Below are positions 14,816-47,784 of a DNA stretch of 64,000 nt, one piece after another (the stretch's first letter is position 1; every line of letters begins with the position of its first letter). Origin of the DNA: Candidatus Bathyarchaeia archaeon (GTDB lineage: Archaea > Thermoproteota > Bathyarchaeia > Bathyarchaeales > Bathycorpusculaceae); NCBI GenBank assembly GCA_037481775.1, contig JBBFKZ010000009.1:1-64000 (forward strand), given 5' to 3'. The position numbers were made by a program, and so were the translations under genes. The notes under the pieces are model-generated. The model worked only from the letters and a program-made list of their open reading frames with translations, was not told the origin of the DNA and made no database searches.

Positions 14816-15565
14816 ATAAACAAAGCAGCCGTTGTCATCAAGGATCTCGTCAAAAAATTTGAGGATGTCACTGCTGTGGACAACCTGAGTCTGCAGGTTG
14901 AAAAAGGCGAACTCTTCGGATTGTTGGGACCAAACGGCGCCGGCAAAACCACAATCATAAATGTTCTCTGCGGCTTGATAAAACCCACAAGCGGCTCAGC
15001 CACGGTGGGCGGTTACGATGTTCAGAAGGAAGCCTCAAAAGTTAAAGCGCTCATAGGCGTCTGCCCTCAAGAAACTGCGCTATACCCTTATCTGACGGGC
15101 ATAGAGAACATTGAATTATTCGGAAATCTTTACACGATGAACAGAGGATCGCTCAAAAAAAGATGCGAACAGTTGCTCAGGAAGATGGGACTTGAGGATG
15201 ATGCCAAACGAAGAGTCGCTAAATACAGCGGCGGCATGAAGCGCCGGTTAAGCCTCATTCTTGCTCTAATTCACGACCCTGAAATAGCATTTTTAGATGA
15301 GCCTACAGTGGCTATGGATCCACAATCAAGGCACGCCGTCTGGGACTTTATAACAGAACTGAAAAAGGGAGACAAAACAATAATTTTGACCACGCACTAC
15401 ATGGAGGAGGCGGAAGAACTGTGTGACCGAGTAGGCATCATAGATCATGGAAAACTCATCGCGCTTGGCGCACCTAAAGATTTGATTTCAAAAAACAACG
15501 TCAAAAACCTGGAAGAAGTATTCATCAAATTAACAGGGCGGAAAATAAGAGAGGAGATCCAATGA
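14816..15565 (+). CDS. ABC transporter ATP-binding protein (DrrA-like exporter); probable ATA start
   Basis: GPNGAGKT, YSGGM, FLDE; conserved N-terminus (IKDLVKKFEDVTAVDNLSL) extends upstream of GTG 14876 to ATA 14816, 9 nt after AAGGAG. Confidence 0.9.
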   Translation: MNKAAVVIKDLVKKFEDVTAVDNLSLQVEKGELFGLLGPNGAGKTTIINVLCGLIKPTSGSATVGGYDVQKEASKVKALIGVCPQETALYPYLTGIENIELFGNLYTMNRGSLKKRCEQLLRKMGLEDDAKRRVAKYSGGMKRRLSLILALIHDPEIAFLDEPTVAMDPQSRHAVWDFITELKKGDKTIILTTHYMEEAEELCDRVGIIDHGKLIALGAPKDLISKNNVKNLEEVFIKLTGRKIREEIQ

Positions 15566-16719
15566 AGCTTCAACGAGTTTTCGCCTTAACCAAAAAGGAA
15601 ATAAAGAAAACCGTTCGAGAACCGGCAGTTCTGTTCATGATTTTCCTGTTTCCCGTAGTCTTCGTCCTCGCATTCGGTGCCTCCTTCGGCGGCGTCGGAG
15701 GCGAACAAGCCGCTTACACTATTGGCGTAGTCAACATGGATCAAGCCACTTCGGTAAACGCGTCGCAGATATTATTGGCAGCGTTGTCTGACACGAAAAT
15801 ACTGAAAATTCAAGTCTACGTTGACAACCAAACTGCACAGAGCGATCTGCTACAGGGAAAAATTCAAGGTGTGATGATAATTCCCAGCGATTTTAGCCAA
15901 AGCTTTGCTTCATATAAGGCAGCCTCAAACAACCCCTGCTTATGGACAAACGCCACCATAGCCTTATACCTGGATCAAGGCTCCATAGTCGCAACTCAAG
16001 CCATACCGCCGATTATCCAGCAAATCCTGGAAACCATCACTGGTCAGGGTCAGCAAGCATATTCAACGCCGTTTCGCTTGGAAATTGCGTCTTTGGTCAC
16101 CGTGGAAGCGCCTTCAGCGTTTGCCTTCATGGCGCCTGGCATGTTTACTTTTGCGTCTATCTTCCTCATAATGATGGTCGCACAATCGTTTACCCAGGAC
16201 CGTGAAAACGGCATGATGAAAAGAATCCGAATTACGCCTACAACGCCAACAGAGTTCATGGCTAGCCAAGTTATATCTTACATGACCATTGCGCTAGCTC
16301 AAGCAGTGCTAGTTTTCATCATGATCTACCTAATGGGCTTTAGACCAAACGTGGAGATACCTGCCTACGCCTTTGCCTTTGCACTAGTGCTGATTTTCTC
16401 GTTATCCAACATTGGATTCGGCTTAATAACAGCCACAATCGCAAAGTCCTCTAACGCGGCAACTGGCCTTTCATTTCTCTTTGTGCTTCCGCAACTGTTC
16501 CTCGGCACTTTCGTCGGTGCGTCTCTCTCTTCGGCAGCACAGGTTGCCGGCAAATTTGTACCCAGCTACTATGTCACTGATGCTCTAACGTCTCTTTTCC
16601 TGAGAGGCTCCCCAATTGCCAGCGCCACCGTGTTACTGGATCTAGCGGTAATTTCCGTTTCCTGCATAGCTATCCTAATAGTTGGCATAGTCCTCTACGG
16701 TAAATACTTTAAAATCTAA
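15562..16719 (+). CDS. ABC-2 type transporter permease
   Basis: ATGA overlap with the ATPase; N-terminal TM, extracellular loop, further TMs; DRENGMMKRI..TP motif. Confidence 0.9.
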   Translation: MKLQRVFALTKKEIKKTVREPAVLFMIFLFPVVFVLAFGASFGGVGGEQAAYTIGVVNMDQATSVNASQILLAALSDTKILKIQVYVDNQTAQSDLLQGKIQGVMIIPSDFSQSFASYKAASNNPCLWTNATIALYLDQGSIVATQAIPPIIQQILETITGQGQQAYSTPFRLEIASLVTVEAPSAFAFMAPGMFTFASIFLIMMVAQSFTQDRENGMMKRIRITPTTPTEFMASQVISYMTIALAQAVLVFIMIYLMGFRPNVEIPAYAFAFALVLIFSLSNIGFGLITATIAKSSNAATGLSFLFVLPQLFLGTFVGASLSSAAQVAGKFVPSYYVTDALTSLFLRGSPIASATVLLDLAVISVSCIAILIVGIVLYGKYFKI

Positions 16720-16891
16720 GCAGAAACATGGGCAGGTAAACTGCGGAATCGCGCAAGCTTAACAAGGGAGAAGTGAAAGGAACCCTTTTACGGCTAAGGT
16801 CCCAGATGGAAAAACCATGTGAGTGGGTCTTCTATAGGTGCTAGAGAATTCGCCTAAAAAGCGGATATAACATGTTGAATAACGCTAGTAT

Positions 16892-17569
16892 TTATTCTCT
16901 GCTTGAGAGTACTGCAATGTAGTCTGCTGTGTCTGCGCACATGTCTGCAGCGTGCTCAATGAACTCGATTAAATCGTCAAATATGACCATGGCTCCGCAA
17001 TTGATTTCTGCACCGTACTTGACAAACAAACTTTTCGTCTTCAGATACTCCTCATCAAGCACATGTTCAATTTCCTCAACTTTTTTGGCTTGAGCCATAG
17101 CCTCCGCGGGATCGGACGATATTTTTTCGATGCTGTTGCGTAGTGTTTGCGCGGTTTCAACAAGTTTTGCCGCCATAAACACCGTTTTAGCGCTTAGTTC
17201 TTGTGGAATTTTTACTTCTTCAAGCATTTCTAAACAGCGTGCGGCGTCTTTTGTGTGGTCCGCCAGTGTGTCCAACCTTTTAACGAGATGCAGTAAGTCT
17301 TCGCGGTAGTCAGCCACCAGCGCTGCGCCTTTGGACAATTCCATGAAAACTTCTGTCCGCAACCTGTCCACTTCTTCTTCAGCCTTATACAGGTTTGCGA
17401 CATGCTTCTTGGACTCGGCAAAGTTGCCTTCAGAGAAGCTTTTGATAGCTCTGTGAAGCCACGTTACCGTATCAAAGGCTTTTGTTATCTGCTCGTGAGC
17501 TAATTCTAACGCCTTAGTTTTACGACGCTTCTCAAACCAATTATAGCTTTTTCTTTCCACCGAGTGCAT
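16892..17569 (-). CDS. DUF47 / PhoU-like phosphate transport regulator family
   Basis: Duplicated helical repeats EEEVDRLR / EEIEHVLD, REDLLHL..LD.LAD, AADMCADTAD; GTG 17560 is better spaced from the SD. Confidence 0.85.
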   Translation of the reverse strand: MHSVERKSYNWFEKRRKTKALELAHEQITKAFDTVTWLHRAIKSFSEGNFAESKKHVANLYKAEEEVDRLRTEVFMELSKGAALVADYREDLLHLVKRLDTLADHTKDAARCLEMLEEVKIPQELSAKTVFMAAKLVETAQTLRNSIEKISSDPAEAMAQAKKVEEIEHVLDEEYLKTKSLFVKYGAEINCGAMVIFDDLIEFIEHAADMCADTADYIAVLSSRE

Positions 17570-18061
17570 CTCCTCTTATCACTATTTGCTACTGTAAACA
17601 TATAACCCTTCTTGTAATCCCCATTCATCCTGAACTGACTGTTAGCATTTTCTCCACCTTTAGCGGGGTTTACTAATGTTGGTAAGTTAATGCTATTTAG
17701 GCCAGTTATGCCAAGCACGCATCAATTGCCAAAAACCAGTCTACAGAGCCCACATCACGCACATATGTTTGCCTTTGCTTTTTCCTCTTTTCACGTATAG
17801 CCATATTCTCACCTTGCTTCATGCTCTGTAATGGGTGAACTGCGTGGGCTTAACAATTCGGCTTTCCCTTTTCCCCGCTTCAGCTTTTTCCATCACAATG
17901 ACCCAGGATGTAAAACAGTTGCGTTTGCACTTATTTAGCATCTCCAAATATTATCTATAACTCCCTTTAGTCTATATAGTCCCATTTCAAAAAACCTAGT
18001 ACACTTAAACCCCGTTTTCAGTCACTCCAATAAAGATGCACGCTTGTTAAATTCGTCCGTG

Positions 18062-21308: not shown

Positions 21309-21596
21309 TTACTTTTTGGTCAGTGTTATTTCCATCGTTGAGACCATGCGGCTTTTGTTTTCGCCTTCCCTCGGCGGCATCTCAGCAGTGCCAATGGCTA
21401 TGCTGCTAACCTTCAAATCCTTCATGAAGCGGTTCCTAGCTATCTCAGCCACGTCAACAGCCGTCGTAATCGCCTGCCCACGAGCCTTCAACGTTATCTG
21501 CTTAGCATTGCCGGAAGAGAAAGCCGTTATGATAGCCAGCACATAACTCATCGGAGGCTTATTCCCAACGAAGATAACATCAGAGTTGTCAGCCAT
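21309..21596 (-). CDS. alba: DNA/RNA-binding chromatin protein Alba
   Basis: IFVGNKPPMSYV, KARGQAITTAVDVAE, VSTMEI. Confidence 0.95.
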   Translation of the reverse strand: MADNSDVIFVGNKPPMSYVLAIITAFSSGNAKQITLKARGQAITTAVDVAEIARNRFMKDLKVSSIAIGTAEMPPREGENKSRMVSTMEITLTKK

Positions 21597-21887
21597 TTTA
21601 TTCACTCCTTTTTATTGTTTCTTTTGTGTAATGTTGCTGTTTACGCGTTTCTGTCGGTGACAGAACGTTACTGCCTATATAATTTGTATCTTCCTTATAA
21701 GTCAATTGCCTAAAAGAGCTATAATGAAATTATAAATTCAACCATAAATTTACATTATGAATAGCGCGCTATCGTTTTCAAGAGCAAGTTTAATCGGCAA
21801 ACATGTGTTGTATTAAAAACTTGAACTACGGCACAGCCCAGTTTAAATAATAAGCCTCAGCATACAAAATACAAGAGTGGATAAACG

Positions 21888-26368: not shown

Positions 26369-26844
26369 ATTTTATTGCGGATGGCATGCTTGGGAAACTG
26401 ACGAGGTGGCTTCGCATGCTGGGACAAGACGTGAAATACTCCAACCAATTTGAGGATGACGAGCTTATTACGCTTGCTAAAAAAGAGCACCGCATTCTTC
26501 TTACAAGAGATCTGGAGCTTTACCAACGCGCCATCGCCAGAGGTGTTGAGGCTTTCTATGTTGAAGGGCGAACAGAAGCAGAAAGGCTATCTGAACTTGC
26601 TAAGCGATTTGATATTCCGCTAACTATAGATATGGCGCGCTCTCGTTGCCCGAAATGCAACACCATTGTTCAGCCAGTACCTAAAGAAAAAATTGTAGGC
26701 AAAATTGAGCAGAACACTTTCACCTTTTATGATAAATTTTGGGAATGCCCTAAGTGTGATAGCATCTATTGGCAAGGCGCCCATTGGAGTCGAATCAACG
26801 CTACTCTTGAAGAAGCAAAGAAAAGACTGTTTAATTTTAGCTAA
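26359..26844 (+). CDS. Mut7-C RNase (PIN-like, DUF82) with zinc ribbon
   Basis: [41 protein letters not shown]. Confidence 0.9.
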
Positions 26845-27088
26845 GTAGCCACTTCAACGGAATATCCTGAAAGGTTCCGTCAGGCAAGGTTCTTCTGATA
26901 GTTATTGGAAGTATGCCAACTTCAAGCTCTTTTAATGCTATTTCAATAGGATTCGAATATTCCCCGCTCACTTCTATGAGTATTGGTGCACCCATAGAAA
27001 TCTGAAGTGCTCTCGCTCCCACTATTCTAGCCTTCTCGAACCGCGTGAGTTTCGGAGGACCTACTAATATTTTCTTTTGTGCAGACGT
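26837..27088 (-). CDS. rpoK: DNA-directed RNA polymerase subunit K (Rpo6); probable non-canonical start (ACG 27088 or ATA 27070)
   Basis: Reading upstream of GTG 27022 in frame gives [26 protein letters not shown], the Rpo6 signature; no ATG/GTG/TTG precedes it before the thermosome TAG. Confidence 0.92.
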
Positions 27089-28747: not shown

Positions 28748-28886
28748 ATCAAGATAACCCCCTTTTAGTGCGCACAACAAAAAAACATAATTACCATATA
28801 AATTTTTCTAGCAAAATTGTCGAACCGCGCTTAAAAAGTTTCCTATAAATGTTGTCGCAATTCTTAACTTTGACTTATCGAGCAGA

Positions 28887-33438: not shown

Positions 33439-33509
33439 CCGTGCTTCAGCATTAAGGTTTATACCAAGCGCTTCCTTATTTTTCATTGCTATTTTCTGAG
33501 GTATCTGTA

Positions 33510-34838: not shown

Positions 34839-35218
34839 GTGGCGAGGAAAATATTTCACGGGTTAAAATACGATTCGTTATAGAAGGATTAGGCGAGGCA
34901 GAAGGTGAGCTCGTTAGGTTTCTAGCGCCCAGAACCATCGACACAATTGTTCGAAGGCTTCCTGTTGAGGGTAGAGCTGCCTTATGGAAAGAAGAGGTCT
35001 ACTTTGAAATTCCAGTTAAAATCGGAGAAGAAAAAGCTAAGCCTACCGTTGAAACAGGAACTATCGCCTTTTGGCCAATGGGAAGCGCTCTCTGTATATT
35101 CTATGGCCAATCGCAACCCTACAGCCCAGTGAATGTCCTAGGCAAGGTTACAAAAAATCTGGAGCTGTTTAAACAAGTTAAAAGTGGCACAACAATCAAG
35201 GTTGAGTTACTGGCTTAG
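34835..35218 (+). CDS. Cyclophilin-like fold protein (DUF369)
   Basis: APRT...LP.EG...WKEEVYF, GTIAFWPMGSALCIFYG, PVNVLGK; TTG start overlaps the upstream stop. Confidence 0.85.
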   Translation: MSGEENISRVKIRFVIEGLGEAEGELVRFLAPRTIDTIVRRLPVEGRAALWKEEVYFEIPVKIGEEKAKPTVETGTIAFWPMGSALCIFYGQSQPYSPVNVLGKVTKNLELFKQVKSGTTIKVELLA

Positions 35219-35694
35219 TACGCTATCGAACTGTCTCTCCACATTTGTAGCAATCGTTCGCACTCAGCCCTCACATTCGCATCTTGGGTTTTCTGTTTCA
35301 AAATCTCCAAGAATTCCATGCGTTTTTCAACTGAACGCTTTTCTGCGGTGCCTCCGTAATAGAGCTCGCCTTCCAAATATTCCTTCATTTGGCTGGCTTT
35401 TTGAATGAAAAGGCTTGCAGCGTCAACGGGGTTTTCAACTGCAAACTTGTTTGCCCATATCGCAACTTCTGTCTCGCGAAGTTGAGTTAATCCATCAATT
35501 TCAACAATTTCTCTGATGTAAGTTCTCAAGAAATCGTAGTACCCAGCAGTTTTTATTAATTCAAGAGTTTGGGATACTTTCTCCTTAAATTCAGGGCTTC
35601 CCTCCACTGCCAATTCATGCTTATAGCCGCTGTTTATGAGCTCTATTGCTGTTTTCACTTCTTTTTTTGTGTAGACTCGTTTTGGAAACTTCAA
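35215..35694 (-). CDS. Hypothetical protein
   Basis: ORF track; probable TTG start at 35694 after AGGAG; co-oriented with rps25e. Confidence 0.65.
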   Translation of the reverse strand: MKFPKRVYTKKEVKTAIELINSGYKHELAVEGSPEFKEKVSQTLELIKTAGYYDFLRTYIREIVEIDGLTQLRETEVAIWANKFAVENPVDAASLFIQKASQMKEYLEGELYYGGTAEKRSVEKRMEFLEILKQKTQDANVRAECERLLQMWRDSSIAY

Positions 35695-35753
35695 GCTGAA
35701 CAAACTCCTGTTACTCAAAAACAAGAACAGTAGATTTTATGCAATGTTAGATG

Positions 35754-36086
35754 CTAGGCGGCTTTTGGCTTGTATACCTTTATATTGTGACTTCCCGATA
35801 CTAACTCTACTACGCCGTTTTGCTCCAGCTCTTCCAAGAAGTCCTTGGCGGTGCTTATCCGAATGTTGAACTTTGAAGCTAAAGCGTAAGGCGTCAAAAC
35901 ATTCATCTTTTTTACTTCTCCGATAACTTTCTCGTTTTTTACGTCAGGAGGGATTACCGCTGCAGGCTTTTTTTCCTTCGGCGGACCTGCTTTTTCCTTC
36001 TTCTTCTCTGCTGCTTTTTCTTCTTCATCTTTTCTGGATTGCATGCGTTCCATTTGTTTTAGCCCAAGTTTCTTTTTTCCGCCCAT
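35754..36086 (-). CDS. rps25e: 30S ribosomal protein S25e
   Basis: MGGKKK basic N-terminus; LTPYALASKFNIRISTAKDFLEEL...IKVY winged helix. Confidence 0.92.
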   Translation of the reverse strand: MGGKKKLGLKQMERMQSRKDEEEKAAEKKKEKAGPPKEKKPAAVIPPDVKNEKVIGEVKKMNVLTPYALASKFNIRISTAKDFLEELEQNGVVELVSGSHNIKVYKPKAA

Positions 36087-36108
36087 TTTTCGTAACTCCT
36101 TTTCTGCA

Positions 36109-37599
36109 TTAGGCCAGTTGACTTATTTCAACTTTATGCTTGCTCTTCCACTCTTTGATGGGTATGCCCATTTTCCTTTCAACTTCAGCTCTATGTATAG
36201 AATTCATGGTGCAAAATGGTATTATGCGCCCGTCTGGCACTGCATAGTGAATGACGCAGCGTTGAACTCGTTCTAAGTCGAAGTTGTACGGATCCATGAA
36301 GTGCATGGCTGAAAGCAGAATCGCTTTTCTCTGCAGATCGCCTAGCGCTTTGTAGCTTCCTTCCGTTAAAACTCGCAGAAGATATTTTCTCAAAAAACTG
36401 AATTTCACATGCCTTAATGCCCCAAACAAGCGTATTTTGGCTTTGTTTTTGCTTCCTTTCGAGGCGTTTTCGTAAACTTTCCGCATGGTTTCAACGAACT
36501 TTTCCACGCTAGCATAGCGGGTAATCGGTATGATTTCGCCATCCTCAACAAACAGGTAGGTGGCCATGCCACAGTGTGGATGCGCCGTGAACTCTACATA
36601 ACGCTTGTCTTTTAGGGCACCAACCGCCTTTGAAACTGGCACAACAGTGGGCACAGGATAAAAGTCTGAAACTTTCACTTTGCCTCCTGTCTGTTCTTCA
36701 ACTAGCCGCATGAAATCAGTGATTGTGATGCGCATGCGGTCTCGTTCCTTTTGTGGAATACGCCCGCAAAGAGAGACCGGCTGCACATTTATGCATCTTA
36801 CAACATCGAAGTTTTTTACCGCAAAGTTTATGATGTCGCCTAGTTGTCCGTCATTGACGCCTTTCACCAGAGTGACTACTAAGACTATGCTGTGCAATCC
36901 TGCTTGGCGACAGTTTTCGATGGCCTTCATTTTCGTTTCCAGCAAGTCGACGCCGCGTATGAACTTGTAAACTTCGGATGTTAATCCGTCAAATTGCAGG
37001 TAGATGGTGCTTACGCCTGCCTCTTTCAGTTGCCTACAGTAATCAACGCTCTGCGCGAGTCGAAGACCGTTCGTATTTACTTCCACATGGCGGAACCCAA
37101 GTTCCTTTGCTTTTCGAACAAGGTCGAAGAGGTCGTTGCGGATTGTTGGTTCTCCGCCGCTGAACTGAAGCGCTGTTGCTGGCACTGGATCATTTGCACG
37201 TAGGTTCTCCAGCATTCTTGTGATTTCCTCGCGTGTAGGCTCGTACACGTAGCCTGCAGCAGCCGCGTTTGCAAAACAGACTGGGCACGTAAGATTGCAC
37301 CTATTGGTCACGTCAATTATTGCAAGCGCCGTGTGCGACTTATGTTCTGGGCATATGCCGCAGTCGTAGGGGCAGCCTTTCTCCTTTTTTGTACGCGGAT
37401 TATTCAAACCTTCGCCGTCATATCTGAGCTTTTCAACACGCAAGTACTGCTCATAATCGGACCAGTAAAGTTCTTGGAAAAAGCCGTGAGTAGGGCACTC
37501 TTTTTTAATGTAGACTTTGCCGTCGTCCTCAAAAATTGTGGCATCTAACACTTTCAAGCACTCGGGACAAATGCTCTTCGTGTTTTTAATCTTGTTCAT
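36109..37599 (-). CDS. tes: Radical SAM tetraether lipid synthase (Tes/GDGT-MAS family)
   Basis: N-terminal CPEC..CPTHG, CPYDCGICPEH, CNLTCPVC radical SAM motif, HPHCG, CVIHY..PDGRIIPFC. Confidence 0.88.
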   Translation of the reverse strand: MNKIKNTKSICPECLKVLDATIFEDDGKVYIKKECPTHGFFQELYWSDYEQYLRVEKLRYDGEGLNNPRTKKEKGCPYDCGICPEHKSHTALAIIDVTNRCNLTCPVCFANAAAAGYVYEPTREEITRMLENLRANDPVPATALQFSGGEPTIRNDLFDLVRKAKELGFRHVEVNTNGLRLAQSVDYCRQLKEAGVSTIYLQFDGLTSEVYKFIRGVDLLETKMKAIENCRQAGLHSIVLVVTLVKGVNDGQLGDIINFAVKNFDVVRCINVQPVSLCGRIPQKERDRMRITITDFMRLVEEQTGGKVKVSDFYPVPTVVPVSKAVGALKDKRYVEFTAHPHCGMATYLFVEDGEIIPITRYASVEKFVETMRKVYENASKGSKNKAKIRLFGALRHVKFSFLRKYLLRVLTEGSYKALGDLQRKAILLSAMHFMDPYNFDLERVQRCVIHYAVPDGRIIPFCTMNSIHRAEVERKMGIPIKEWKSKHKVEISQLA

Positions 37600-37707
37600 G
37601 TTTTTCACTATACCTTTTTTGGTAAACAAGTTTTCGAAGTGCTTAAGAATCGCAGTAGACATAATAATGTTTCCAACCGTTTCATAAGGTGATTGAGGGG
37701 AATTAAA

Positions 37708-38457
37708 GTGTCAATCAGCGATAGCATCCGCGAGATTCTACGGGAAATAGGCTTAAGCGCTTACGAGATTGACGCTTACACGGCGCTTATAGAGGGCGGG
37801 CGGATGACGGCATTGGAGATAAGCCGCGAGGCATCTGTTCCCTACTCAAAGATTTATGAGGTATTGAACACGCTTAAAGAGAAGGGCTGGATTAAAAGCT
37901 CGGAAAGGCGGCCTTTCAAGTATTATCCTGTCTCGCCTGTTGAGGCTATGGCGTTCACTAAACTCAAATTTGAAGACAAATATCAAGGCTGGGAAAGAGC
38001 TATAGCTGAAGAGCTGCAGCCTCTGTATGAAAAGCAGGCGCTGGTGGAGCGCGCTGATCTGCTTTTACTGCACGGGCAGCAAGCAGTTCTCGCCAAGCTT
38101 GAGGAGGTTCTCAAGAAAGCCACAAAGGAAATTATGGTTGCCACTCCTGAATTTGCAAGACCCATAATGGCGTCTGCGGAACCGCTGCTCGGCATGATCA
38201 AAAAGACGGTGAACGTTAAGCTTATGGTGGCTGGAAAAACCGAGGACTGGCTTTTCCTAAAAAGGTTCGCTGGCATAAGCGAGCTACGGGTTAGAGATCA
38301 CATGTTCGGCGGAGGCATAATTGCGGACAGCAAAGAAGCCATGCTCTTCCTCGGAGAAGACAAACCCAGCTTAGTCATATGGAGCAATCATGTGGGTCTG
38401 GTGGGTTTTGCGCGGGAATATTTCCAGTTTCTATGGGACTCGTCAGCAAAAGCTTAG
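37708..38457 (+). CDS. TrmB family transcriptional regulator
   Basis: IGLSAYE..AY.AL, TALEISREASVPYSKIYEVL..L.EKG, RPFKY; start GTG 37708 or TTG 37693. Confidence 0.9.
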   Translation: MSISDSIREILREIGLSAYEIDAYTALIEGGRMTALEISREASVPYSKIYEVLNTLKEKGWIKSSERRPFKYYPVSPVEAMAFTKLKFEDKYQGWERAIAEELQPLYEKQALVERADLLLLHGQQAVLAKLEEVLKKATKEIMVATPEFARPIMASAEPLLGMIKKTVNVKLMVAGKTEDWLFLKRFAGISELRVRDHMFGGGIIADSKEAMLFLGEDKPSLVIWSNHVGLVGFAREYFQFLWDSSAKA

Positions 38458-38602
38458 TGTAATGATGCAATGTAGTGCAAAATGGCTTCTGAGCATAGCG
38501 TGTTAATGGCTCCTACTAGGCAGTCTAGCTACTTTTAATTGCTTAAAGCATAAATATTGTTGGCGCTATACCTTTAGCTTGCCAAAAAAGGAGAATAGGA
38601 GA

Positions 38603-41128
38603 ATGATGAAGAAAAAGATAGCTGTTGCTTTAACTGTCGCGCTTGTATTTGCTATGATTGCTCCGTTTTCCATAATGCCCTTGGCTGAAGCACAAGCAGC
38701 TCGCAGAGTAAAAACCTACCCCTACATTGGGGCAGTACCTAACCCCGCGCAAGTTGGCAAACCAATAATGCTTCATGTCGGCATATCGCTACCTGCAACT
38801 TGGCCACAGACAGGCCACAAAGGACTTACGGTGACGATTGAAAGGCCAGATGGCAAAGTTGACACTTTGGGCCCAATTAATACGGATACAACAGGCGGTA
38901 CCGGCGTAACTTATGTGCCCACAATCACTGGAACCTACTATGCGCAAGTGCATTTTCCTGAGCAAGCTTTGGAAGTAGCTGTTTTAGGCTTGCCCGCGGG
39001 AACAATACTCGAAGCGTCGGACAGTGACAAGCTCCAAATCATCGTGCAGGAGGAGCCGCTTGAGTACTGGCCCAGCGTCCCGCTTCCAAGCGAATTCTGG
39101 AGCCGCCCAATAAACGCGCAATTCAGAGAATGGAATGTGATAGCTGGAAACTGGCTATACTCGAAAGGCTACTTCATTGACATGGATACACCTGGCAATG
39201 AAGACGCGCCAGAGGCGCCGCACATACTTTGGGCTAAGCCCTTAGTGAAAGGCGGCTTAGGCGCACTTGGCGGAGGCTTGGTCGGCATTAACGTTGGCGA
39301 ACACGCGTTTGAAGACGGCGACGCTTACGAAGGATTGTTCCTGCCACCAGTCATAATCGCCGGCGTGCTATACTTCAACAGATACAAGAGTATCGGTGAC
39401 ACAGCAGTTGAGCAAGAGGTCGTTGCTGTTGATCTACGCACTGGCGAAGAATTGTGGGTTAGAAACTGGAACAACACAAGACTGGCTTTTGGTCAAACTT
39501 TCTACTGGGACGGATTCAACTATCACGGTGTATTCGCTTATCTCTGGGCAACTGTGGGCACGACATGGTACGCTTATGAAGCTGCAACAGGTCGCTGGGT
39601 GTACACCATGACTAACGTGCCTGCTTCAGGCGCCAACATATACGGACCAAACGGCGAAATAATCAGATACACCGTCAACTTGGCACAGGGCTGGATGACG
39701 AAGTGGAATTCTGCCGCAGTAATCAGCGCATACTGGGCTACTGACCCCAACAACCCAGGTTGGGGTTCATGGCGACCACAAGGCAAAGTAATCAACGCTA
39801 CTGGATCGGTTCCAGTGACTTCTGTTACGCCGCTCGGCTTAAACGGCTATGAATGGAACGCAACCATACCAAGAGGCCTGCCTGGAAGCGTTGTCGCATA
39901 TCTCGAAGACCGCGTCTTAGGCACAAACTTTGCCAGCGGCTCGCTCGCGCCGAGCACCATGGTTATGTGGGGAATAAGCGCCAAAACTGAATCGAAAGGA
40001 CAGTTGCTCTTTAATGTAACATGGACGCCACCGAGGCCTGATGCACGCTATAGGCTAGAGGCAGCCAGCGTCAAAGACGGCATATTCGTCGTAGTTTGCT
40101 TGGAGACTACTGAGAAATGGGCTTTCGACATTAACACTGGCAGGCAACTTTGGGGACCCACAGAGAAGCAGGATTACAAGGATGCATGGTCTTACGCCTC
40201 AGGATACTCCTGGGACTTCATATACAATGGCAAATACTACGCAGCGGGCACTGGCGGCTCAGTGTACTGTTACGACGCAAAAACTGGCAACCGCCTTTGG
40301 ACCTACAACTTCAAAGACCGATATCATGACTTCTTATTCGGCAACAACTGGTTCATCTACACAGCATTTATTGCTGATGGAAAGCTCTACTTCAACTACG
40401 CCGAGCACTCGCCAGGCGATCCGAAAGAACGTGGCTCCGAAATGGTCTGCATTGACGCGGAGACAGGCGAAGAAATCTGGCGTCTCAATTACTACGGCAC
40501 TGTCTGGGGAGGAAAACCTGTAATCGGCGATAGCATAATAGCTTGCTTAAACTCATACGACTCCCGCGTATATGCCATCGGCAAAGGTCCAAGTGCAACG
40601 ACCGTCTCAGCGTCGCCTGAAATCGCCACACATGGAAGCAAAGTGCTTGTAAAAGGCACAGTCACCGACATCTCTCCAGGAACAGATGATGTGGCCATCA
40701 AGAAGCGGTTCCCTAATGGTGTGCCTGCTGTTGCTGACGAGTCAATGAGCGCCTGGATGGAATACGTCTACATGCAGTTCTCATGTCCTGCGAACGTTAA
40801 GGGCGTCGAGGTCATCATTGAAGTGCTTGATCCGAACGGCAACTATTACGAGGTTGCCAAGGCAACCACAGATGGCAGCGGCTTCTACAGCGCTACTTTC
40901 GAACCGCCAGTTCCAGGCAAATACACAATCGTCGCCAGATTCGCAGGCTCCAAGGCCTACTATGGCTCGCACGCTGAAACCGCCATAGTCGTTGAGGAAG
41001 CTCCACCTGCTACGCCAGAAGCCACGCCTGCTCCTCAGGCGCCTGTTGAAACATACTTCGCCATCTCCACTGTTGCTATCATAATTGCAATCGCCGTCGC
41101 CGTTACATTATTACTGAGGAAACGGTAA
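38603..41128 (+). CDS. Secreted, C-terminally anchored PQQ-like beta-propeller protein (paralog 1)
   Basis: Signal peptide (KKKIAVALTVAL...AEA); repeats AVDLRTGEELW, AFDINTGRQLW, CYDAKTGNRLW, CIDAETGEEIW; C-terminal TM + RKR. Confidence 0.85.
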   Translation: MMKKKIAVALTVALVFAMIAPFSIMPLAEAQAARRVKTYPYIGAVPNPAQVGKPIMLHVGISLPATWPQTGHKGLTVTIERPDGKVDTLGPINTDTTGGTGVTYVPTITGTYYAQVHFPEQALEVAVLGLPAGTILEASDSDKLQIIVQEEPLEYWPSVPLPSEFWSRPINAQFREWNVIAGNWLYSKGYFIDMDTPGNEDAPEAPHILWAKPLVKGGLGALGGGLVGINVGEHAFEDGDAYEGLFLPPVIIAGVLYFNRYKSIGDTAVEQEVVAVDLRTGEELWVRNWNNTRLAFGQTFYWDGFNYHGVFAYLWATVGTTWYAYEAATGRWVYTMTNVPASGANIYGPNGEIIRYTVNLAQGWMTKWNSAAVISAYWATDPNNPGWGSWRPQGKVINATGSVPVTSVTPLGLNGYEWNATIPRGLPGSVVAYLEDRVLGTNFASGSLAPSTMVMWGISAKTESKGQLLFNVTWTPPRPDARYRLEAASVKDGIFVVVCLETTEKWAFDINTGRQLWGPTEKQDYKDAWSYASGYSWDFIYNGKYYAAGTGGSVYCYDAKTGNRLWTYNFKDRYHDFLFGNNWFIYTAFIADGKLYFNYAEHSPGDPKERGSEMVCIDAETGEEIWRLNYYGTVWGGKPVIGDSIIACLNSYDSRVYAIGKGPSATTVSASPEIATHGSKVLVKGTVTDISPGTDDVAIKKRFPNGVPAVADESMSAWMEYVYMQFSCPANVKGVEVIIEVLDPNGNYYEVAKATTDGSGFYSATFEPPVPGKYTIVARFAGSKAYYGSHAETAIVVEEAPPATPEATPAPQAPVETYFAISTVAIIIAIAVAVTLLLRKR

Positions 41129-41143
41129 ACCTGCAAAAATCGC

Positions 41144-41168
41144 ACAAAACTCATTTCCCCTTTTTTTC
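41144..41168 (+). terminator. Oligo-T terminator of PQQ paralog 1
   Basis: AAAACTCATTTCCCCTTTTTTTC shortly after the stop; similar tract after paralog 2. Confidence 0.6.
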
Positions 41169-41306
41169 GGGTTATTTCTGCGTCAAGCTTTGAGGTGCTG
41201 AGTGGACTTTAGGCATTAATTGAAGCTGCAGTAGCAGAATGTTGTGTTATCTTTCAAGATATAGTGTATCTTCTACAGAATCTATCAAGGGCATTGTTGC
41301 AATTTG

Positions 41307-41585
41307 CTATTTGTAGGTGATGCCCATTTGTTTCATGAAGTTGAGAACTTTCTCATACTCTTCAAGATACCTTTTTCCCTTTTCTGTTAACTTAAGCGAG
41401 GTCTCATCTTGAATCAAACCGAGTTGATTAAGTTCTGAAATGTATATTTTCAGCCTATCAAAGGGGACTCTCATTTGCATTTGAATGTGTGTTAGCACTA
41501 TCTTTTCCTTTTTACCTTCGTTGTAAAGTATTGATAAGAGGTCACCGTAGATTTTCAGTCTGTCTCTCCGCGCAATCTTTTTCAT
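41307..41585 (-). CDS. Small archaeal winged-helix regulator
   Basis: RRDRLKIYGDLL...THI.....FDRLKIYISEL..GLI....LTEKGKRYL; start overlaps the end of the upstream membrane gene. Confidence 0.85.
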   Translation of the reverse strand: MKKIARRDRLKIYGDLLSILYNEGKKEKIVLTHIQMQMRVPFDRLKIYISELNQLGLIQDETSLKLTEKGKRYLEEYEKVLNFMKQMGITYK

Positions 41586-42249
41586 TTAACCGCCCCTTTT
41601 CAGTACTATAGAAGGCTTTGTATGAAACAAATAGAAAGATGGCAAGGCTAGCCCAGCGAATTGCTAGTGCCGAAAAAAATGCAAAAATACTGTTGTCAAC
41701 AATCCAAATTAATAGCGAATATTGGCTTATTCCTAGGAGAATGTACGCTAATGGGATCCATATGGTTCCCGGGGTTGGCGCTTCTATGTGGCTTCTAAGC
41801 GTGTGAGCACAGATATACAGGATGCAGCACAGATTAAAAATTCGGATAACAACACTTGTAAGTTGATAGCTGGGTAATGCATCGATAGGAAGGTTGAGCA
41901 AAAGTGCTAAAGTTGCTATAAGCCCAACAGTTAATGTTGCTATAGTGCTATTCCAAAGCAATTTTGACTTTGTCTCTTTCCCTGAAAAGTAGTAGGTCAT
42001 TGTTAGAAACATAAATGCGAATGCTCTTACGACAAGTTGAAGATACAGTGTTTGTCGGCCAAAAATGTATGGTTGGAAATATGAAAAGGAGGAGAAGGCG
42101 TATGTTGCTCCAAGAAATCCAAATCCGAGAGGTAACCCTAGATATCTGCTTTCTCTGGTGATTTGATAGGGTTTAATCATGAATTTTACGAGAATAAAAC
42201 AGAGAATAGCCGAGATCGCTTCGTATGCGATTCGTATTTCATCATACAT
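41542..42249 (-). CDS. Multi-pass (about 7 TM) membrane protein, possible sensor
   Basis: About seven hydrophobic segments with short loops; overlaps the wHTH gene. Confidence 0.75.
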   Translation of the reverse strand: MYDEIRIAYEAISAILCFILVKFMIKPYQITRESRYLGLPLGFGFLGATYAFSSFSYFQPYIFGRQTLYLQLVVRAFAFMFLTMTYYFSGKETKSKLLWNSTIATLTVGLIATLALLLNLPIDALPSYQLTSVVIRIFNLCCILYICAHTLRSHIEAPTPGTIWIPLAYILLGISQYSLLIWIVDNSIFAFFSALAIRWASLAIFLFVSYKAFYSTEKGRLNEKDCAERQTENLR

Positions 42250-42389
42250 AATGCTTCACTAACCTACTGTGTGAAGTTCGCTTTTCCTATAATTAATTTA
42301 CGCACACGATAGGTGAGTTTGACTTATTAGCACTCTCTTGAAAATAGGAAGTTGCCTTATAAAGACATATAACTAAAGGGAGGATAAAA

Positions 42390-44963
42390 ATGGAGCTTGC
42401 AAGAAACAAGGCTAATCTGGCTGCTTTATTTCTAATGACTGCTATGTTGTTTGTACTTGCTGAGGCACCTGCCGCTAACGCACATGACCCTGCTTGGACC
42501 ATTATTTCCTACGCCTATGTCGTTCCTGCACCTAACCCTGTGGGACTCGCTCAACGTGTAGCCATCGTAATGTGGGTTGACACGCCTTTACCGGGTGCGC
42601 TTGTTACTAATGACATCCGACGTCATGATTACAAACTCACCATAACAAAACCTGACGGAAACACAGAAGTACACGAATGGGACGTTGTTTGGGACACGAC
42701 AAGTTTCCAGTACTTTTCCTACGTTCCAGATCAAGTAGGTGAGTACACTTTATTGTTCGAGTATCCGGGGCAAAAATACACTTGGGCAGGCGAGTATAAT
42801 GGAGACACATTTACACCCGCTAGCGCCACAGCGACCTTCACAGTTCTGGAAAATCCGCTGCCTGAACCCACACTTAGCTATCCGCTTCCCACAGAATACT
42901 GGGTACGCCCCATAGAAGGGCAGAACTCCTACTGGTATACCATCTCATCAAACTGGCTGGGTTCGCCATACATTCGTTCCGGTGAAAGCAGCACTGGCGG
43001 TGCAGGTTACGCAAGGTTCCAGCCTGATGGTACAGCGCCTAACAGCCCACACATAATGTGGACAAGACCAATTCAGGATGGCGGTGTCGTCGGAGGAAGC
43101 AATGTCGGTCGTGATGGCAACACGTTCTACATGGGCGGCTCATACAATACTAGGTTCAGCAATGCAATAGTTATGTACGGAAGACTCTATTACGAACTTC
43201 CCTATGGCAATTCAGGCGGAGGCGGAGGATGGATATGCGTCGATTTGCGGACTGGCGAAGAGATATGGTACAATGCAGAAATGGGCGCCACAGCGAGTCT
43301 GCCTGACCCAGCTTTTGGCTACTATTATTGCTATGACGACGGTAATCAACATGGAATTCTTCCAAACGGCTTGCTGTTTGCGAGCAACTTCCAAACTGCA
43401 TATGATCCAGCCACAGGAAAACCCACAGGCACGAACATAACAGGTGTTCCTTCAGGCACATCGGTCGTCGGGCCAAAAGGTGAAATAATTCGCTATGTTC
43501 TTAAAAACGTAGGCACGCCTTCAAATCCAAGTTATCGTCTGCTACAGTGGAACTCTTCCTACATAAACTTCCAAACTGCGGGGCAGATCGGTGCAGCCAA
43601 TTGGTATCCAGGAACTATAGATGCAAGTCAAGATCGCTTTTACGACTGGAACATATCGCTGTCAGGGTTAGGTCCCGGAACATGGAGCGCTTGGCGAGAA
43701 GCTAGCTTAGACAACATAATCCTTCTCATTCAAGGTAACCTTGGAACACATGTAGGCGTTTATGGAGGAGCAATAAGCCAGGCAGGAGCAAACGTTACTG
43801 CAGTAAGTCTAAAGCCAGAATCAAGAGGACAAATATTGTGGACTAAGCACTATCCAGTAGCACCAAATAACATTACCCGAGAAATCACTGCATGGGATCC
43901 AGAACTCGGTGTATTCGTTATGGAGGATAAAGAAACCATGGCACATTACGGCTACAGCCTATACGATGGAAGCCTGTTATGGACTAACACTGATTATGTG
44001 CACCCGTATGACACCCTGCGGTCAGTGTCTCTAGCTGCTTATGGCAAGCTTTATGTGGCTGGTTTCGGCGGGATACTCTACTGCTATGACATGTCAAACG
44101 GAAAACTACTGTGGACTTACGGTAACGGCGGAGAAGGCAACAGCACTTTCTCAGGTCTTGAGACGCCATGGGGTCACTACCCAATCTTCGTAGATGTTAT
44201 TGCTGACGGCAAAGTTTACGTGGGCACTACTGAACATTCGCCTGACTCCCCATACTACAAGGGTGCAAGGTATCGCTGCATAAACGCTACTACCGGCGAG
44301 GAAATCTGGACTATTCTAGGATGGGGCTCTGGCATGTACGTCGGATCCTGCGATGTCGTTGCAGACGGTTTCTTCGTATTCCTCAACTGCTATGACATGC
44401 AAGTGTACTGCATTGGTAAGGGCCCGAGCGCCACGACTGTAACTGCGTCTCCGAAGGTTTCTGTGCATGGCAGCAAAGTCCTCGTGGAAGGCACCGTAAC
44501 GGATATTTCTGCTGGTACAAGACAGGCTGAGCAGGCTGCGCGGTTCCCGAATGGCGTGCCCGCTGTTTCTGACGAGAGCATGGGTGCGTGGATGGAGTAC
44601 GTGTACATGCAGAAGCCTAAGCCTACTAACGTTAAAGGCGTCGACGTCATCGTTGAAGTCTTGGATCCCAACGGCAACTACTATGAGGTAGCTAGAACCA
44701 CAAGTGATTCGAGCGGCTTCTTTAAGGCTACGTTTACGCCGCCTGTGCCTGGCGAGTACACCATTATCGCCCGTTTTGCTGGCTCGGAGTCGTACTGGCC
44801 TTCGCATGCAGAAACAGCCCTATATGTCGAAGATGCGCCGCCAGCTACGCCTGAAGCTACGCCTACGCCCCAAGCGCCAGTGGAAACCTACTTTGCTATT
44901 TCAACAATCGCCATAATCGTCGCTATCGCCATAGTTGGTCTACTACTAATGAGGAAACGGTAA
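42390..44963 (+). CDS. Secreted, C-terminally anchored PQQ-like beta-propeller protein (paralog 2)
   Basis: SD GGAGG; signal peptide; CVDLRTGEEIW, CYDMSNGKLLW, CINATTGEEIW; C-terminal TM + RKR. Confidence 0.85.
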   Translation: MELARNKANLAALFLMTAMLFVLAEAPAANAHDPAWTIISYAYVVPAPNPVGLAQRVAIVMWVDTPLPGALVTNDIRRHDYKLTITKPDGNTEVHEWDVVWDTTSFQYFSYVPDQVGEYTLLFEYPGQKYTWAGEYNGDTFTPASATATFTVLENPLPEPTLSYPLPTEYWVRPIEGQNSYWYTISSNWLGSPYIRSGESSTGGAGYARFQPDGTAPNSPHIMWTRPIQDGGVVGGSNVGRDGNTFYMGGSYNTRFSNAIVMYGRLYYELPYGNSGGGGGWICVDLRTGEEIWYNAEMGATASLPDPAFGYYYCYDDGNQHGILPNGLLFASNFQTAYDPATGKPTGTNITGVPSGTSVVGPKGEIIRYVLKNVGTPSNPSYRLLQWNSSYINFQTAGQIGAANWYPGTIDASQDRFYDWNISLSGLGPGTWSAWREASLDNIILLIQGNLGTHVGVYGGAISQAGANVTAVSLKPESRGQILWTKHYPVAPNNITREITAWDPELGVFVMEDKETMAHYGYSLYDGSLLWTNTDYVHPYDTLRSVSLAAYGKLYVAGFGGILYCYDMSNGKLLWTYGNGGEGNSTFSGLETPWGHYPIFVDVIADGKVYVGTTEHSPDSPYYKGARYRCINATTGEEIWTILGWGSGMYVGSCDVVADGFFVFLNCYDMQVYCIGKGPSATTVTASPKVSVHGSKVLVEGTVTDISAGTRQAEQAARFPNGVPAVSDESMGAWMEYVYMQKPKPTNVKGVDVIVEVLDPNGNYYEVARTTSDSSGFFKATFTPPVPGEYTIIARFAGSESYWPSHAETALYVEDAPPATPEATPTPQAPVETYFAISTIAIIVAIAIVGLLLMRKR

Positions 44964-44980
44964 ACATGCTGATGCGAAAC

Positions 44981-45003
44981 AAAACTCTTTTTCCCTCTTT
45001 TTT
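44981..45003 (+). terminator. Oligo-T terminator of PQQ paralog 2
   Basis: AAAACTCTTTTTCCCTCTTTTTT after the stop. Confidence 0.6.
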
Positions 45004-45229
45004 CATTGCCGATAAAACGCAGTGGGCTGAATGGGCTTTGGGTTATGATTTATCTGCAGCAGCAGATTACCATTCTTCTTTTCTCCTTTAGTTGATGCCC
45101 AAAGCCCCAGCAAACCTCTCCCGATTGTAGAGTAAAGTGATATTTAACTAACCGGTTCAAGCTGTTTATAGATGGGCTATGTTTTTTCAACGCAAAAATT
45201 TTGCAAACTAAAAAAAGAGAAAGAGGGAA

Positions 45230-45451
45230 TTATTTTCCCATGACTTTTTTAGCAGCGATTTCTATGTCTTCTGCTTTGATGGTTTTGCGACCGGCGTGCA
45301 TGGCAAAATCTAATGCTTCTTTCGCGATTTTTACGCCAATCTCCTCCAGCGCCTTAGCGAGCTCTTTCGCTGCTGCTTCACTGACTCTGTCTGCTCCTGC
45401 CTTTTTGCACAACCTGTGCATGGGAGCTACAGCTAATTCTAAATCCGTCAT
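45230..45451 (-). CDS. Archaeal histone (HMf family)
   Basis: [33 protein letters not shown] histone fold. Confidence 0.95.
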
Positions 45452-45588
45452 AAAGACGACTCCTTAGCCTCTTTTTCTTTTTAAAGCCATATTTAACCTT
45501 TTTTATCCCGCCGACTCTTAAGCTTGTCTTGTTGCTTAAAATTCCTCGAATAAAGAAGAAAATTATAAAAACGCTATAACCGATAAAA

Positions 45589-46386
45589 ATGGCGAAGGTT
45601 TCAAAGATGAAGCTAGTTGACGCGCATATTCATCTCTCCGACGCGGAGTACGCTCAGATCGTTGATGAACTTGTGTTGGAAGCTAAAAACTCCGGTGTTG
45701 TCGCGCTGGTTTCGAATTCAATGGATTTTGATACCAGCCTTAAAAGTGTGAAGCTGGCTGAGAAATACTCTAGCCTTGTTTACGCTGCGTTAGGCATTCA
45801 TCCATGGAATGTGAATGTGCTCAAGGAAAACGAGCTTGAAGACACACTAAAGCTGATTTTTGAGCAAAGCCAAAGAAAGGCAATAGTCGCAATAGGCGAA
45901 ATCGGACTAGACTATAAGTATGAGGCAATATGGGATAAACAGCTCATGGTTTTCGACAAGATGCTGCGTGCAGCTGAAAAGACAAGTCTGCCTGTTATAA
46001 TTCACTCGCGTGGAACAACCGCTCAAATTGTGGATATGCTTCCGTCCTATAATCTCAAGCGTGTTCTGCTACACTGGTTCAGCCACCCCTTAAGTGCATT
46101 AAACAAAGCTTTAACGCATGGATATTTCATCACTGAAGGGCCGCCAGTAGCTTATTCTCCAGGCATCCGCGAGGTCGTTAAAAGAGTGCCCCTAACAAGC
46201 TTTCTAACAGAAACTGACGGTCCCGTGACTTACCGGAAACCGCCCTACAATGGCAAGATTACGAAGCCTTCATTTATAAATACAGTGGTTGAAGCCGTAG
46301 CCGCGATCAAGAATATGCCTATCACCGATGTTGCTGAGCAAATAGCCAGAAACTTTGAAGTTTTCTTCGATATAAAACTAAATTAA
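45589..46386 (+). CDS. tatD: TatD family DNase
   Basis: DAHIHL, GIHP, IGEIGLD, IIHSR, LHWF, LTETDGP. Confidence 0.93.
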   Translation: MAKVSKMKLVDAHIHLSDAEYAQIVDELVLEAKNSGVVALVSNSMDFDTSLKSVKLAEKYSSLVYAALGIHPWNVNVLKENELEDTLKLIFEQSQRKAIVAIGEIGLDYKYEAIWDKQLMVFDKMLRAAEKTSLPVIIHSRGTTAQIVDMLPSYNLKRVLLHWFSHPLSALNKALTHGYFITEGPPVAYSPGIREVVKRVPLTSFLTETDGPVTYRKPPYNGKITKPSFINTVVEAVAAIKNMPITDVAEQIARNFEVFFDIKLN

Positions 46387-46748
46387 CATTTGCCCGTGAA
46401 ATCCGCTTTTGCACTGTTAAACCATGAAAAGCTGAACTTTTAGGCAAGCCTTCAAAACGGCGTGAGATGCAACAAGTGCCCGATTCATCTTCTTCGATTA
46501 GTGCTAACGGCATACTCACGCTTTTTAATCTTAAGTTATGTGTTAGGCCAGTTTTTTAGGGAATCCTCCTTTTTGAACGGAGTTTTAATGTATTTTAATT
46601 TGTGCAATGCGTTTCTATTTTACCCTTTGCGGTAATAGAATTTGCAAGGCGTAAACTTAAATTAAGCCTCTCTACTATTGAAAGTTGCTTTTACGCTTTC
46701 AAGCGGTGGAAGAAGAAAACCGATGCGTAACTGGAGGAACAGGTATAC

Positions 46749-46979
46749 TTGGGAAAAGTCAAAACGGAACAAATTAAACGGTTAGCTAAGGAACTCATAG
46801 CAAGGTTTCCGAATAAATTTTCCACTAATTTTGAAGACAACAAGCGTGCAGTTGAGGCGCTTACATTGGGCGCAACCACGAGAGTTAAAAATCAAATCGC
46901 TGGGTATATAACACACGTTATGACTTTAACGCAGAAAAAGTCGCCAACTGAAGCAGTCAAGGAAGAAATAGCAGCATAA
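46749..46979 (+). CDS. rps17e: 30S ribosomal protein S17e
   Basis: MGKVKT..IKR, F.TNFEDNK, VKNQIAGYIT; SD GGAGG + TTG. Confidence 0.96.
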   Translation: MGKVKTEQIKRLAKELIARFPNKFSTNFEDNKRAVEALTLGATTRVKNQIAGYITHVMTLTQKKSPTEAVKEEIAA

Positions 46980-46992
46980 TGCCGGGAAAAAC

Positions 46993-47373
46993 ATGTTGCT
47001 AATAGATGAATACAGAAAGGGCTGGGCAATACGCTATCTACGCGAAGCGAAAGCCGAGTTGGAAGCAGCGCGAAAGATTCCCTATATGGCGCCCAGTCTT
47101 GTGTTGGAAGCTATTAGAAAAGCCAGAAACGCCATATACTACAGCATAGGTGAACCCGCCTTCATCGAGTTTCTCATACATGAAGAGCTGCTAAAGACGC
47201 CGCCTACGAATGACCAGACCCTACGTTTTCTCATTGAAATTGAGGCGATTTTACAGCAGCTATCCCAATTAGAGGACATTAACGGCGATGCAATTATTAA
47301 GCAGGCGGATACGCTTATTCAGATAGCCGCGGACATTGTGGAGACCTTCACTGAAGAGAAATTAGAAGATTAG
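46993..47373 (+). CDS. Hypothetical all-helical protein (possibly HEPN-like)
   Basis: ORF track; N-terminal RYLREAKAELEAA helix resembles HEPN starts, but no RxxxxH motif seen. Confidence 0.65.
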   Translation: MLLIDEYRKGWAIRYLREAKAELEAARKIPYMAPSLVLEAIRKARNAIYYSIGEPAFIEFLIHEELLKTPPTNDQTLRFLIEIEAILQQLSQLEDINGDAIIKQADTLIQIAADIVETFTEEKLED

Positions 47374-47499
47374 CGCGTAAAGCAACTTGTTTTGCGTTTT
47401 CTAATCTTATCCTTTTAGATTGAAGACTTGCGCTTAAAAATCGAGAATTGTTTATTAGCATTTTGCCTCCTAATTTCCATAAATAGGCTGAGTGGGAAA

Positions 47500-47784
47500 A
47501 TGACAATCTCCCTCAAATTTCTCGGCACCTTGCGCCACATATCAAACACGAGCAAACTTGCGTTGAGTGTTAATGGCGCTCTTTCCGTGAAGGAGTTACT
47601 TAGCAGGCTTGTTGAAGAAATACCCGCCCTCAAGCAGAGCTTGAGTCCTCAGCAACTGGAAGATTTACAGTCAAGCACGTTAATACTTGTAAATGGTAAA
47701 GAAATCAGCGTTTTAGATGGTTTAGCTACCAACCTAAATGATGGTGATGAAGTAGTTTTTGTTCCTGTTGTTCATGGAGGCTGA
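47500..47784 (+). CDS. MoaD/ThiS family ubiquitin-like small archaeal modifier (SAMP)
   Basis: ILVNGKEI..LDG..T.L.DGDEV..VP.VHGG with terminal di-glycine; start ATG 47500. Confidence 0.9.
   Translation: MTISLKFLGTLRHISNTSKLALSVNGALSVKELLSRLVEEIPALKQSLSPQQLEDLQSSTLILVNGKEISVLDGLATNLNDGDEVVFVPVVHGG

Follow-up and report, generated by a model that had tools for sequence, protein, structure and literature searches.

Near-cognate start codons, chiefly ACG, are probably used behind Shine-Dalgarno sequences in Bathyarchaeia

Four conserved genes in a 64,000-nucleotide stretch of DNA from a Candidatus Bathyarchaeia archaeon, together with others in the same genome, are probably translated from near-cognate start codons that are anchored by Shine-Dalgarno (SD) sequences. 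ACG predominates among these codons, with ATA, ATC and CTG as rarer alternatives. The stretch, hereafter called the window, comprises positions 1 to 64000 of contig C9 of genome G000 (1.82 Mb in 54 contigs, 96.7% complete, with a G+C content of ∼45%). Its four genes encode an ABC transporter ATPase, subunit K/Rpb6 of RNA polymerase (rpoK), a tryptophan synthase beta-like protein (trpB2) and a DUF62 / SAM hydroxide adenosyltransferase. In a preliminary description of the window, the family N-terminal motif of each was said to lie 5′ of the first ATG, GTG or TTG of an intact gene, and this is borne out by the reading frames, the Pfam domain starts and the orthologues described below.

Orthologues of all four window proteins were drawn from 30 relatives (5 of the same genus, 13 of the same family and 12 of the same order), and their 5′ ends were aligned codon by codon for each gene. 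Domain starts of the rpoK and DUF62 products were placed with Pfam. All four frames are intact, with lengths of 84–465 codons, and none of them contains an ATG, GTG or TTG between the in-frame stop and the conserved N-terminus. The 3′ end of 16S rRNA in G000 reads GGATCACCTCCT, and the expected SD is therefore GGAGGTGA. Each of the four start codons lies 9 nucleotides (nt) from the end of an SD core that matches this 3′ end. As to the identity of the codons, the preliminary description is supported for ATA 14816 (ABC gene), ACG 27088 (rpoK) and ATA 29594 (trpB2); it erred in naming CTG 47781 for DUF62, where ACG 47790 takes its place, and in offering ATA 27070 as an alternative for rpoK.

The rpoK gene (26837–27088, minus strand) lies directly behind a thermosome subunit gene (27092–28780, minus strand), the last codons of which hold its SD. 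Read along the minus strand, the SD GGAGAG (27103–27098) is followed by the thermosome stop TAG (27094–27092), which stands 3 nt ahead of the start codon, then by AAT and the ACG itself (27088–27086), with a gap of 9 nt between SD and ACG. Counted along the open frame, Pfam RNA_pol_Rpb6 matches from residue 14 onwards, and GTG 27022, the first canonical codon, comes at residue 24, inside the domain. Within the order, ACG stands behind GGAGAG or GGGGAG in 23 of 24 loci, and the one exception carries ACC in its place and a GTG upstream. In seven of these loci (L044, L045, L048, L054, L055, L057 and L059), the frame is open for 6–41 codons 5′ of the ACG region, and the thermosome stop there is therefore out of the rpoK frame; the SD-to-ACG layout is retained in all seven. 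ATA 27070 was rejected as the start, being an ordinary isoleucine codon that reads ATA, ATC, ATT, GTT or CTC across relatives.

For a class-wide view of rpoK, we compiled 80 anchored loci, made up of G000 and 79 named Bathyarchaeia loci; the 80th named locus, L098, offered no anchor. ACG without any canonical alternative within 12 codons is found in 49 of them, ATG in 17, GTG (as classified by the script) in seven, TTG in two and something else in five. Four of the seven GTG loci have this codon 5′ of the SD and CTG at the homologous position; among the five remaining loci, four have canonical codons further upstream and one perhaps uses ATA. Some leaders are near-identical save for ACG versus ATG, as in L104 versus L114. 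Across the 49 loci that lack a canonical start, ACA, ACC and ACT never occur at the start codon, whereas the invariant internal threonine of the K-x-T-R-F-E motif is encoded in the same 80 loci by ACT (34), ACC (21), ACG (14) and ACA (11). Fisher's exact test gives P = 3e-23 for this difference, a value that is overstated, as the species are related and hence not independent. Judged from these alignments, the internal threonine codon clearly drifts in the same loci where the start codon does not. Outside the order, in other families of the phylum, 36 of 40 fetched rpoK loci could be anchored (four had no anchor), and no clear ACG pattern was seen among the 36; most have long N-terminal frames with canonical codons. 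Three rpoK loci from two other Bathyarchaeia families, f13 and f14 (L308, L309 and L311), have no obvious canonical start near the conserved core and carry ATA, CTG or ATT at plausible positions.

The ABC transporter ATPase gene (14816–15565, plus strand) begins with ATA 14816–14818, placed 9 nt 3′ of AAGGAG (14801–14806, plus strand), which complements the 16S 3′ end. A stop (TAA, 14792–14794) precedes the frame, and the first canonical codon comes only at GTG 14876, with the conserved strand AVVI..LVKKFEDVTAV sitting 5′ of it. The Pfam ABC_tran match begins only at residue 29 of the open frame. GTG 14876 was rejected as the start: the position reads GTT or GTA in all three other same-genus orthologues and is therefore an internal valine codon. 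The ATA is kept in four of four same-genus orthologues (G000, G001, G002 and G005) behind AGGAG-like motifs, with variable flanking codons, and none of the four has a canonical codon ahead of the conserved strand. Four orthologues from further away have an ATG 2–4 codons downstream of the ATA position, just ahead of that strand. The SD of the ABC gene falls within a frame of seven codons (ATG...TAA, 14796–14819), whose stop codon runs together with the ATA start as ATAA; ATG 14796 is private to G000, and the ATAA overlap is retained in all four same-genus orthologues.

The second ATA start belongs to trpB2 (29594–30988, plus strand; ATA 29594–29596). It follows AGGAGG (29579–29584, plus strand) at a distance of 9 nt, in agreement with the earlier claim that both ATA codons stand at this distance from a strong SD. 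The 5′ layout reads TAG (29588–29590), GAC and ATA, and no canonical codon comes before TTG 29663. No same-strand gene lies upstream for 2.7 kb. The protein is 97% identical to its G001 orthologue, and a second trpB-type gene is present in G000. At the homologous start, ATG is found in G001, G002 and G014 and GTG in G003 and G005, and none of the 18 aligned relatives has ATA at this position. On these alignments, the ATA is a private replacement of ATG or GTG at what we take to be the true start position.

The DUF62 gene (47790–48572, plus strand; start ACG 47790–47792) lies behind a small ThiS/MoaD-like gene (47428–47784, plus strand), the end of which carries the SD GGAGG (47776–47780). The ACG is 9 nt after this GGAGG and 5 nt after the ThiS-like stop (TGA, 47782–47784). 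The open frame starts at 47751; if residues are numbered from 47757, SAM_HAT_N begins at residue 13 (47793), the codon right after the ACG, and the first canonical codon, TTG 47817, is residue 21. Starting at this TTG would cut off the TDFG motif. Syntenic orthologues start with ATG or GTG 3–5 nt past the ThiS-like stop. One of them, in the same genus (G003), reads GGAGG-9 nt-ATG ATA ACT versus GGAGG-9 nt-ACG ATT ACT in G000, and the ACG is also aligned with the ATG of G018. By these comparisons, ACG 47790 is a private ATG-to-ACG change at the predicted start. CTG 47781 was rejected, as it is 0 nt from the SD and has no counterpart in relatives. An out-of-frame ATG (47774) occurs just 5′ of the start region. 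The possibility raised in the preliminary description, that relatives have ATG and the codons in question are private mutations, is realized at trpB2 and DUF62 and not at rpoK and the ABC gene.

To extend the analysis beyond the window, G000 was compared whole with G013, a two-contig genome from another genus of the same family. Stop-to-stop frames were matched with blastp, giving 1,076 non-overlapping best pairs, and for 92 G000 genes the alignment reaches at least 8 residues 5′ of the first canonical codon. Most of these raw candidates are conserved 5′ leaders, gene overlaps, antisense shadows or rRNA translations. The tally was therefore one of hand-curated cases, with only clear codon-level alignments kept, and is a lower bound; the ABC gene, for one, was missed by the G013 route. 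It comes to ∼14 sites (10 ACG, 2 ATA, 1 ATC and 1 CTG), or ∼1% of compared genes, including the four window genes and excluding C7(−)53261, C1(−)202254 and C22(+)6145. An open frame within the window that lacks a canonical start (21342–21713) was set aside on reading of the sequence as an antisense shadow. The gene on the opposite strand (21309–21605, minus strand) would, from a reading of its translation, encode an Alba-like chromatin protein; the antisense frame is open for 123 codons and could pass for a non-canonical gene.

Several of the tallied ACG starts are shared with G013. The layout GGAGG-9-ACG is found at dnaG in both genomes, and ACG is likewise common to both at a nucleotidyltransferase-like gene, a PIN gene and an HflX-like gene (so labelled from reading its N-terminus). 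At others the two genomes differ: G000 has ACG and G013 has ATG at a nuoC/D fusion, and G000 has ACG (GGAGG-9-ACG in the first case) and G013 has TTG at a T2SSE-type ATPase and an OB-fold protein. The SD scan described below added a membrane protein on contig C11, with AGGAGG-9-ACG. The remaining two sites are a SufS-like aminotransferase, with ATC in G000 and ATG in G013, and a permease, with CTG and TTG, respectively. Among relatives, the start codon of dnaG is ACG in 19 of 26 loci and ATG, at the same codon, in the other 7; at nuoCD, ACG is common to six of six close relatives. G013 has SD-9-ACG candidates of its own, 10 in the SD scan. One, a candidate gene of 200 codons directly 5′ of nuoCD (G013 C1, 1451745–1452345, plus strand), has a G000 orthologue with a canonical start. 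Between genera, an ACG start is thus exchanged for a canonical one, or the reverse, in individual genes.

We also scanned G000 and G013 without recourse to homology, considering codons at least 8 codons 5′ of the first canonical start in long frames and scoring an SD core that ends 8–10 nt before them. In both genomes, ACG ranks first of all codons. An SD at this distance is found for 7 of 114 ACG codons in G000 and 10 of 104 in G013, compared to 13 of 1017 for the other threonine codons in both genomes, with a background of 1.6% and a combined binomial P value of 1e-7 for ACG.

An SD-type motif is present at all 14 tallied sites. Among ACG starts found by homology alone, an SD precedes nine of nine, versus 560 of 1877 genes overall (∼30%; P = 2e-5). 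Its spacing is exactly 9 nt at 6 of 10 ACG sites, versus 15% of canonical starts, for which spacing peaks at 7–10 nt. At seven of the 14 sites, not including those of the ABC gene and trpB2, a frame upstream on the same strand ends no more than ∼25 nt away. As for canonical codons, SD-led starts in G000 comprise 305 ATG, 158 TTG (28%) and 97 GTG, and an SD-backed TTG is the first canonical codon in seven window genes, including cdc48 at 7721; to this extent, the TTG-rich background reported in the preliminary description holds. Its proposal of relaxed initiation in the lineage can be retained in part. The non-canonical starts appear to be real and a lineage trait, but the restriction to ∼1% of genes, the dominance of ACG and the presence of an SD at every site do not amount to general relaxation.

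How might such codons be decoded? In the mechanism we propose, the ordinary initiator Met-tRNA(CAU) would read the near-cognate codon with one mismatch, in the second position for ACG and in the third for ATA. A strong SD duplex with the 16S 3′ end (GGAGGTGA-type), its GGAGG core ending ∼9 nt upstream, would set the codon in the P site, and at about half of the sites ribosomes terminating at the nearby upstream stop could re-initiate. We infer that the initiator (Met-tRNAi) is the decoder and that output from the weak starts is low, setting the level of proteins such as RpoK directly behind the abundant thermosome message.

The preliminary description had suggested divergence of aIF1 or of the initiator tRNA as a cause, and neither was found. 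The single initiator tRNA(CAU) of G000 is canonical: it has the A1:U72 pair, and its anticodon stem contains three G:C pairs. No initiator-like tRNA(CGU) was seen in G000, where the sole tRNA(CGU) is an ordinary elongator with G1:C72 (the genome being 96.7% complete, absence is not proven). The aIF1 protein is full length and possesses its zinc knuckle, and its alignment to the aIF1 of known structure from Methanocaldococcus jannaschii contains no gaps (E-value 3.5e-33). With a canonical initiator tRNA and an ordinary aIF1, there is therefore no sign of a special trans-acting factor, and the requirement appears to lie in cis, in a strong and exactly spaced SD. The aIF1 gene itself, on G000 contig C11, has its ATG ∼30 nt after the TATA-like TTTATATA (L244, ∼1400–1440), without an SD, and so may be leaderless or short-leadered, in contrast to the SD-dependent ACG genes.

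Sequencing or assembly error at a true ATG, or decay of genes that have lost expression, would be another explanation of these codons. It suits trpB2 and DUF62, where the codons are private and relatives have ATG or GTG, and the second trpB-type gene and the frameshift-like breaks in two other genes are in line with it. As a check on errors, contigs of four sequencing runs were placed on window positions 28001–48000. A contig from run X4, of a different study, matches 29123–30689 with 0 differences and spans the trpB2 ATA; one from run X3, also of a different study, matches 47154–48000 with 0 differences and spans the DUF62 ACG. These matches weaken the case for sequence error at the private sites. 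A contig from run X1 is also identical, although this run may be the source sample. Run X5 contains a strain with 197 differences over 12.9 kb, spanning both private sites. For rpoK and the ABC gene no contig check was needed, as relatives assembled independently have the same codons. This recurrence in many genomes, the intact frames, the close match of trpB2 to its G001 orthologue and the standing of rpoK and dnaG as core genes all speak against error or decay. So weakened, the explanation fits only the two private sites, and we consider it improbable.

A different possibility is that the mRNA rather than the DNA holds the answer. Site-specific C-to-U editing, as in plant organelles, would convert ACG to AUG, and the ribosome would meet a normal start. 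This would explain why ACG is by far the commonest non-canonical codon (10 of ∼14 sites), and when relatives are compared, ACG and ATG replace each other at one and the same codon, which is how edited starts of plant organelles show up in DNA; several organelle-genome papers mention ACG starts. However, C-to-U changes cannot produce AUG from the ATA kept in four of four species at the ABC gene, from the CTG at the rpoK start in four species or from the ATC and CTG cases. Edited starts should moreover look like those of ordinary AUG genes, ∼30% of which have an SD, yet the homology-found ACG starts have one without exception and with unusually tight spacing. Archaea are not known to edit mRNA from C to U, although no search of this genome aimed at a deaminase was made. 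Overall, editing strikes us as very improbable. Entry of ribosomes from the upstream gene, by stop readthrough or frameshifting and without a start of the gene's own, has the least to commend it and would be highly surprising. It would yield a thermosome–RpoK fusion, or make the 14796–14819 frame feed the ABC gene, and indeed the thermosome and rpoK frames are in phase with each other, with TAG-AAT between them, and out-of-frame ATGs lie just 5′ of the ABC frame (14796) and the DUF62 frame (47774). But the SD-to-ACG layout of rpoK persists in the 7 of 24 loci where the thermosome stop is out of frame, the ABC upstream ATG is missing in three same-genus orthologues that retain the ATA, and trpB2 lacks an upstream same-strand gene from which ribosomes could enter.

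SD-anchored initiation at near-cognate codons is thus the explanation we prefer, but several observations weigh against it. In the homology-free scan of G000 and G013, no genome-wide SD enrichment was found for ATA, ATT, ATC or CTG, and the ATA, ATC and CTG cases therefore rest on single-gene alignments. The SD of the SufS-like ATC has a spacing of only ∼4 nt. The two private window sites could mark genes that are losing expression rather than a selected start, and the sequencing runs were compared as contigs, which lose rare variants. The window holds four non-canonical sites versus ∼0.5 predicted from the genome-wide rate; either the tally falls short of the true number or the window is exceptional. 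Finally, G000 contains at least two frameshift-like gene breaks, and not every oddity there is biology. An FtsZ/CetZ-like gene (C15, ∼30400–31287, plus strand) has lost its N-terminal part behind a stop, and a nitrilase-like gene (C1, ∼97667–98131, plus strand) has an apparent 1-nt deletion, both relative to G013. These breaks are either real pseudogenes or assembly errors.

On balance, we lean towards a broader interpretation, in which selection has made ACG a fourth start codon in Bathyarchaeia. It would have been kept in rpoK and dnaG for the whole history of the class, would work only with an SD at one exact distance and would set low, fixed translation rates in operons. With equal, and equally qualified, confidence, we suppose that a bacterial-type placement signal is here joined to a eukaryote-like tolerance for ACG.

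Established start codons in archaea are AUG, GUG and UUG. A search of the full-text literature found no description of ACG start codons in archaea; the matching papers on ACG starts concern eukaryotes, their viruses and organelles. There are nonetheless hints that archaeal ribosomes initiate at near-cognate codons. An excerpt of a ribosome profiling study of Haloferax volcanii puts ∼30% of putative alternative initiation sites at near-cognate codons, which were set aside (PMC7261190), and a passage elsewhere states that aIF1 of Sulfolobus solfataricus discriminates against non-canonical starts (PMC8211752, citing Hasenohrl et al.). The sites in these precedents are unverified extras, whereas conserved and even essential genes of Bathyarchaeia have no possible start other than the near-cognate codon, which has long been retained.

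Eukaryotes and their viruses, adeno-associated virus among them, use ACG and CUG as near-cognate starts read by Met-tRNAi, with output thought to be below that of AUG. CUG is the best of the eukaryotic near-cognates, and start choice is policed by eIF1, the homologue of aIF1. The likeness lies in one-mismatch codons, ACG included, serving as real starts. The messages differ, however: those considered here are SD-led, often in operons and with the SD at ∼9 nt, whereas eukaryotic ribosomes scan and respond to Kozak context, and CUG is rare here. Among bacteria, infC starts with AUU, and ATA, ATT, ATC and CTG are in the start list of NCBI table 11; to our knowledge, ACG is absent from that list. 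Rare bacterial starts resemble the present ones in that near-cognate initiation is SD-led and sometimes regulatory, but Bathyarchaeia favour ACG among the non-canonical codons and conserve it on core genes throughout the class. With the edited starts of plant organelles, the common feature is ACG in DNA where relatives have ATG. That comparison breaks down at the starts with ATA and CTG and at the strict dependence on an SD.

Gene callers that take only ATG, GTG and TTG truncate or miss ∼1% of genes here, including those for an RNA polymerase subunit and DnaG, which supports the earlier contention that standard callers would truncate such genes. As a consequence, protein families, estimates of completeness and reconstructed metabolism are distorted for a lineage that is very abundant in sediments and hot springs. 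Conserved ACG starts on SD-led archaeal mRNAs also form a natural set with which codon checking by the eukaryote-type factors aIF1, aIF1A and aIF2 can be studied. The position of rpoK behind the thermosome gene suggests that a weak start may hold expression at a set level in genes that follow highly expressed ones.

Two minor observations concern the sequencing runs. In RNA run X20, a small share of the query words is present. Within the window, contigs of the four metagenomes diverge from it far more at 40000–41300 and 44900–45500 than in other parts, with dense substitutions and small indels, and these may be strain-variable stretches.

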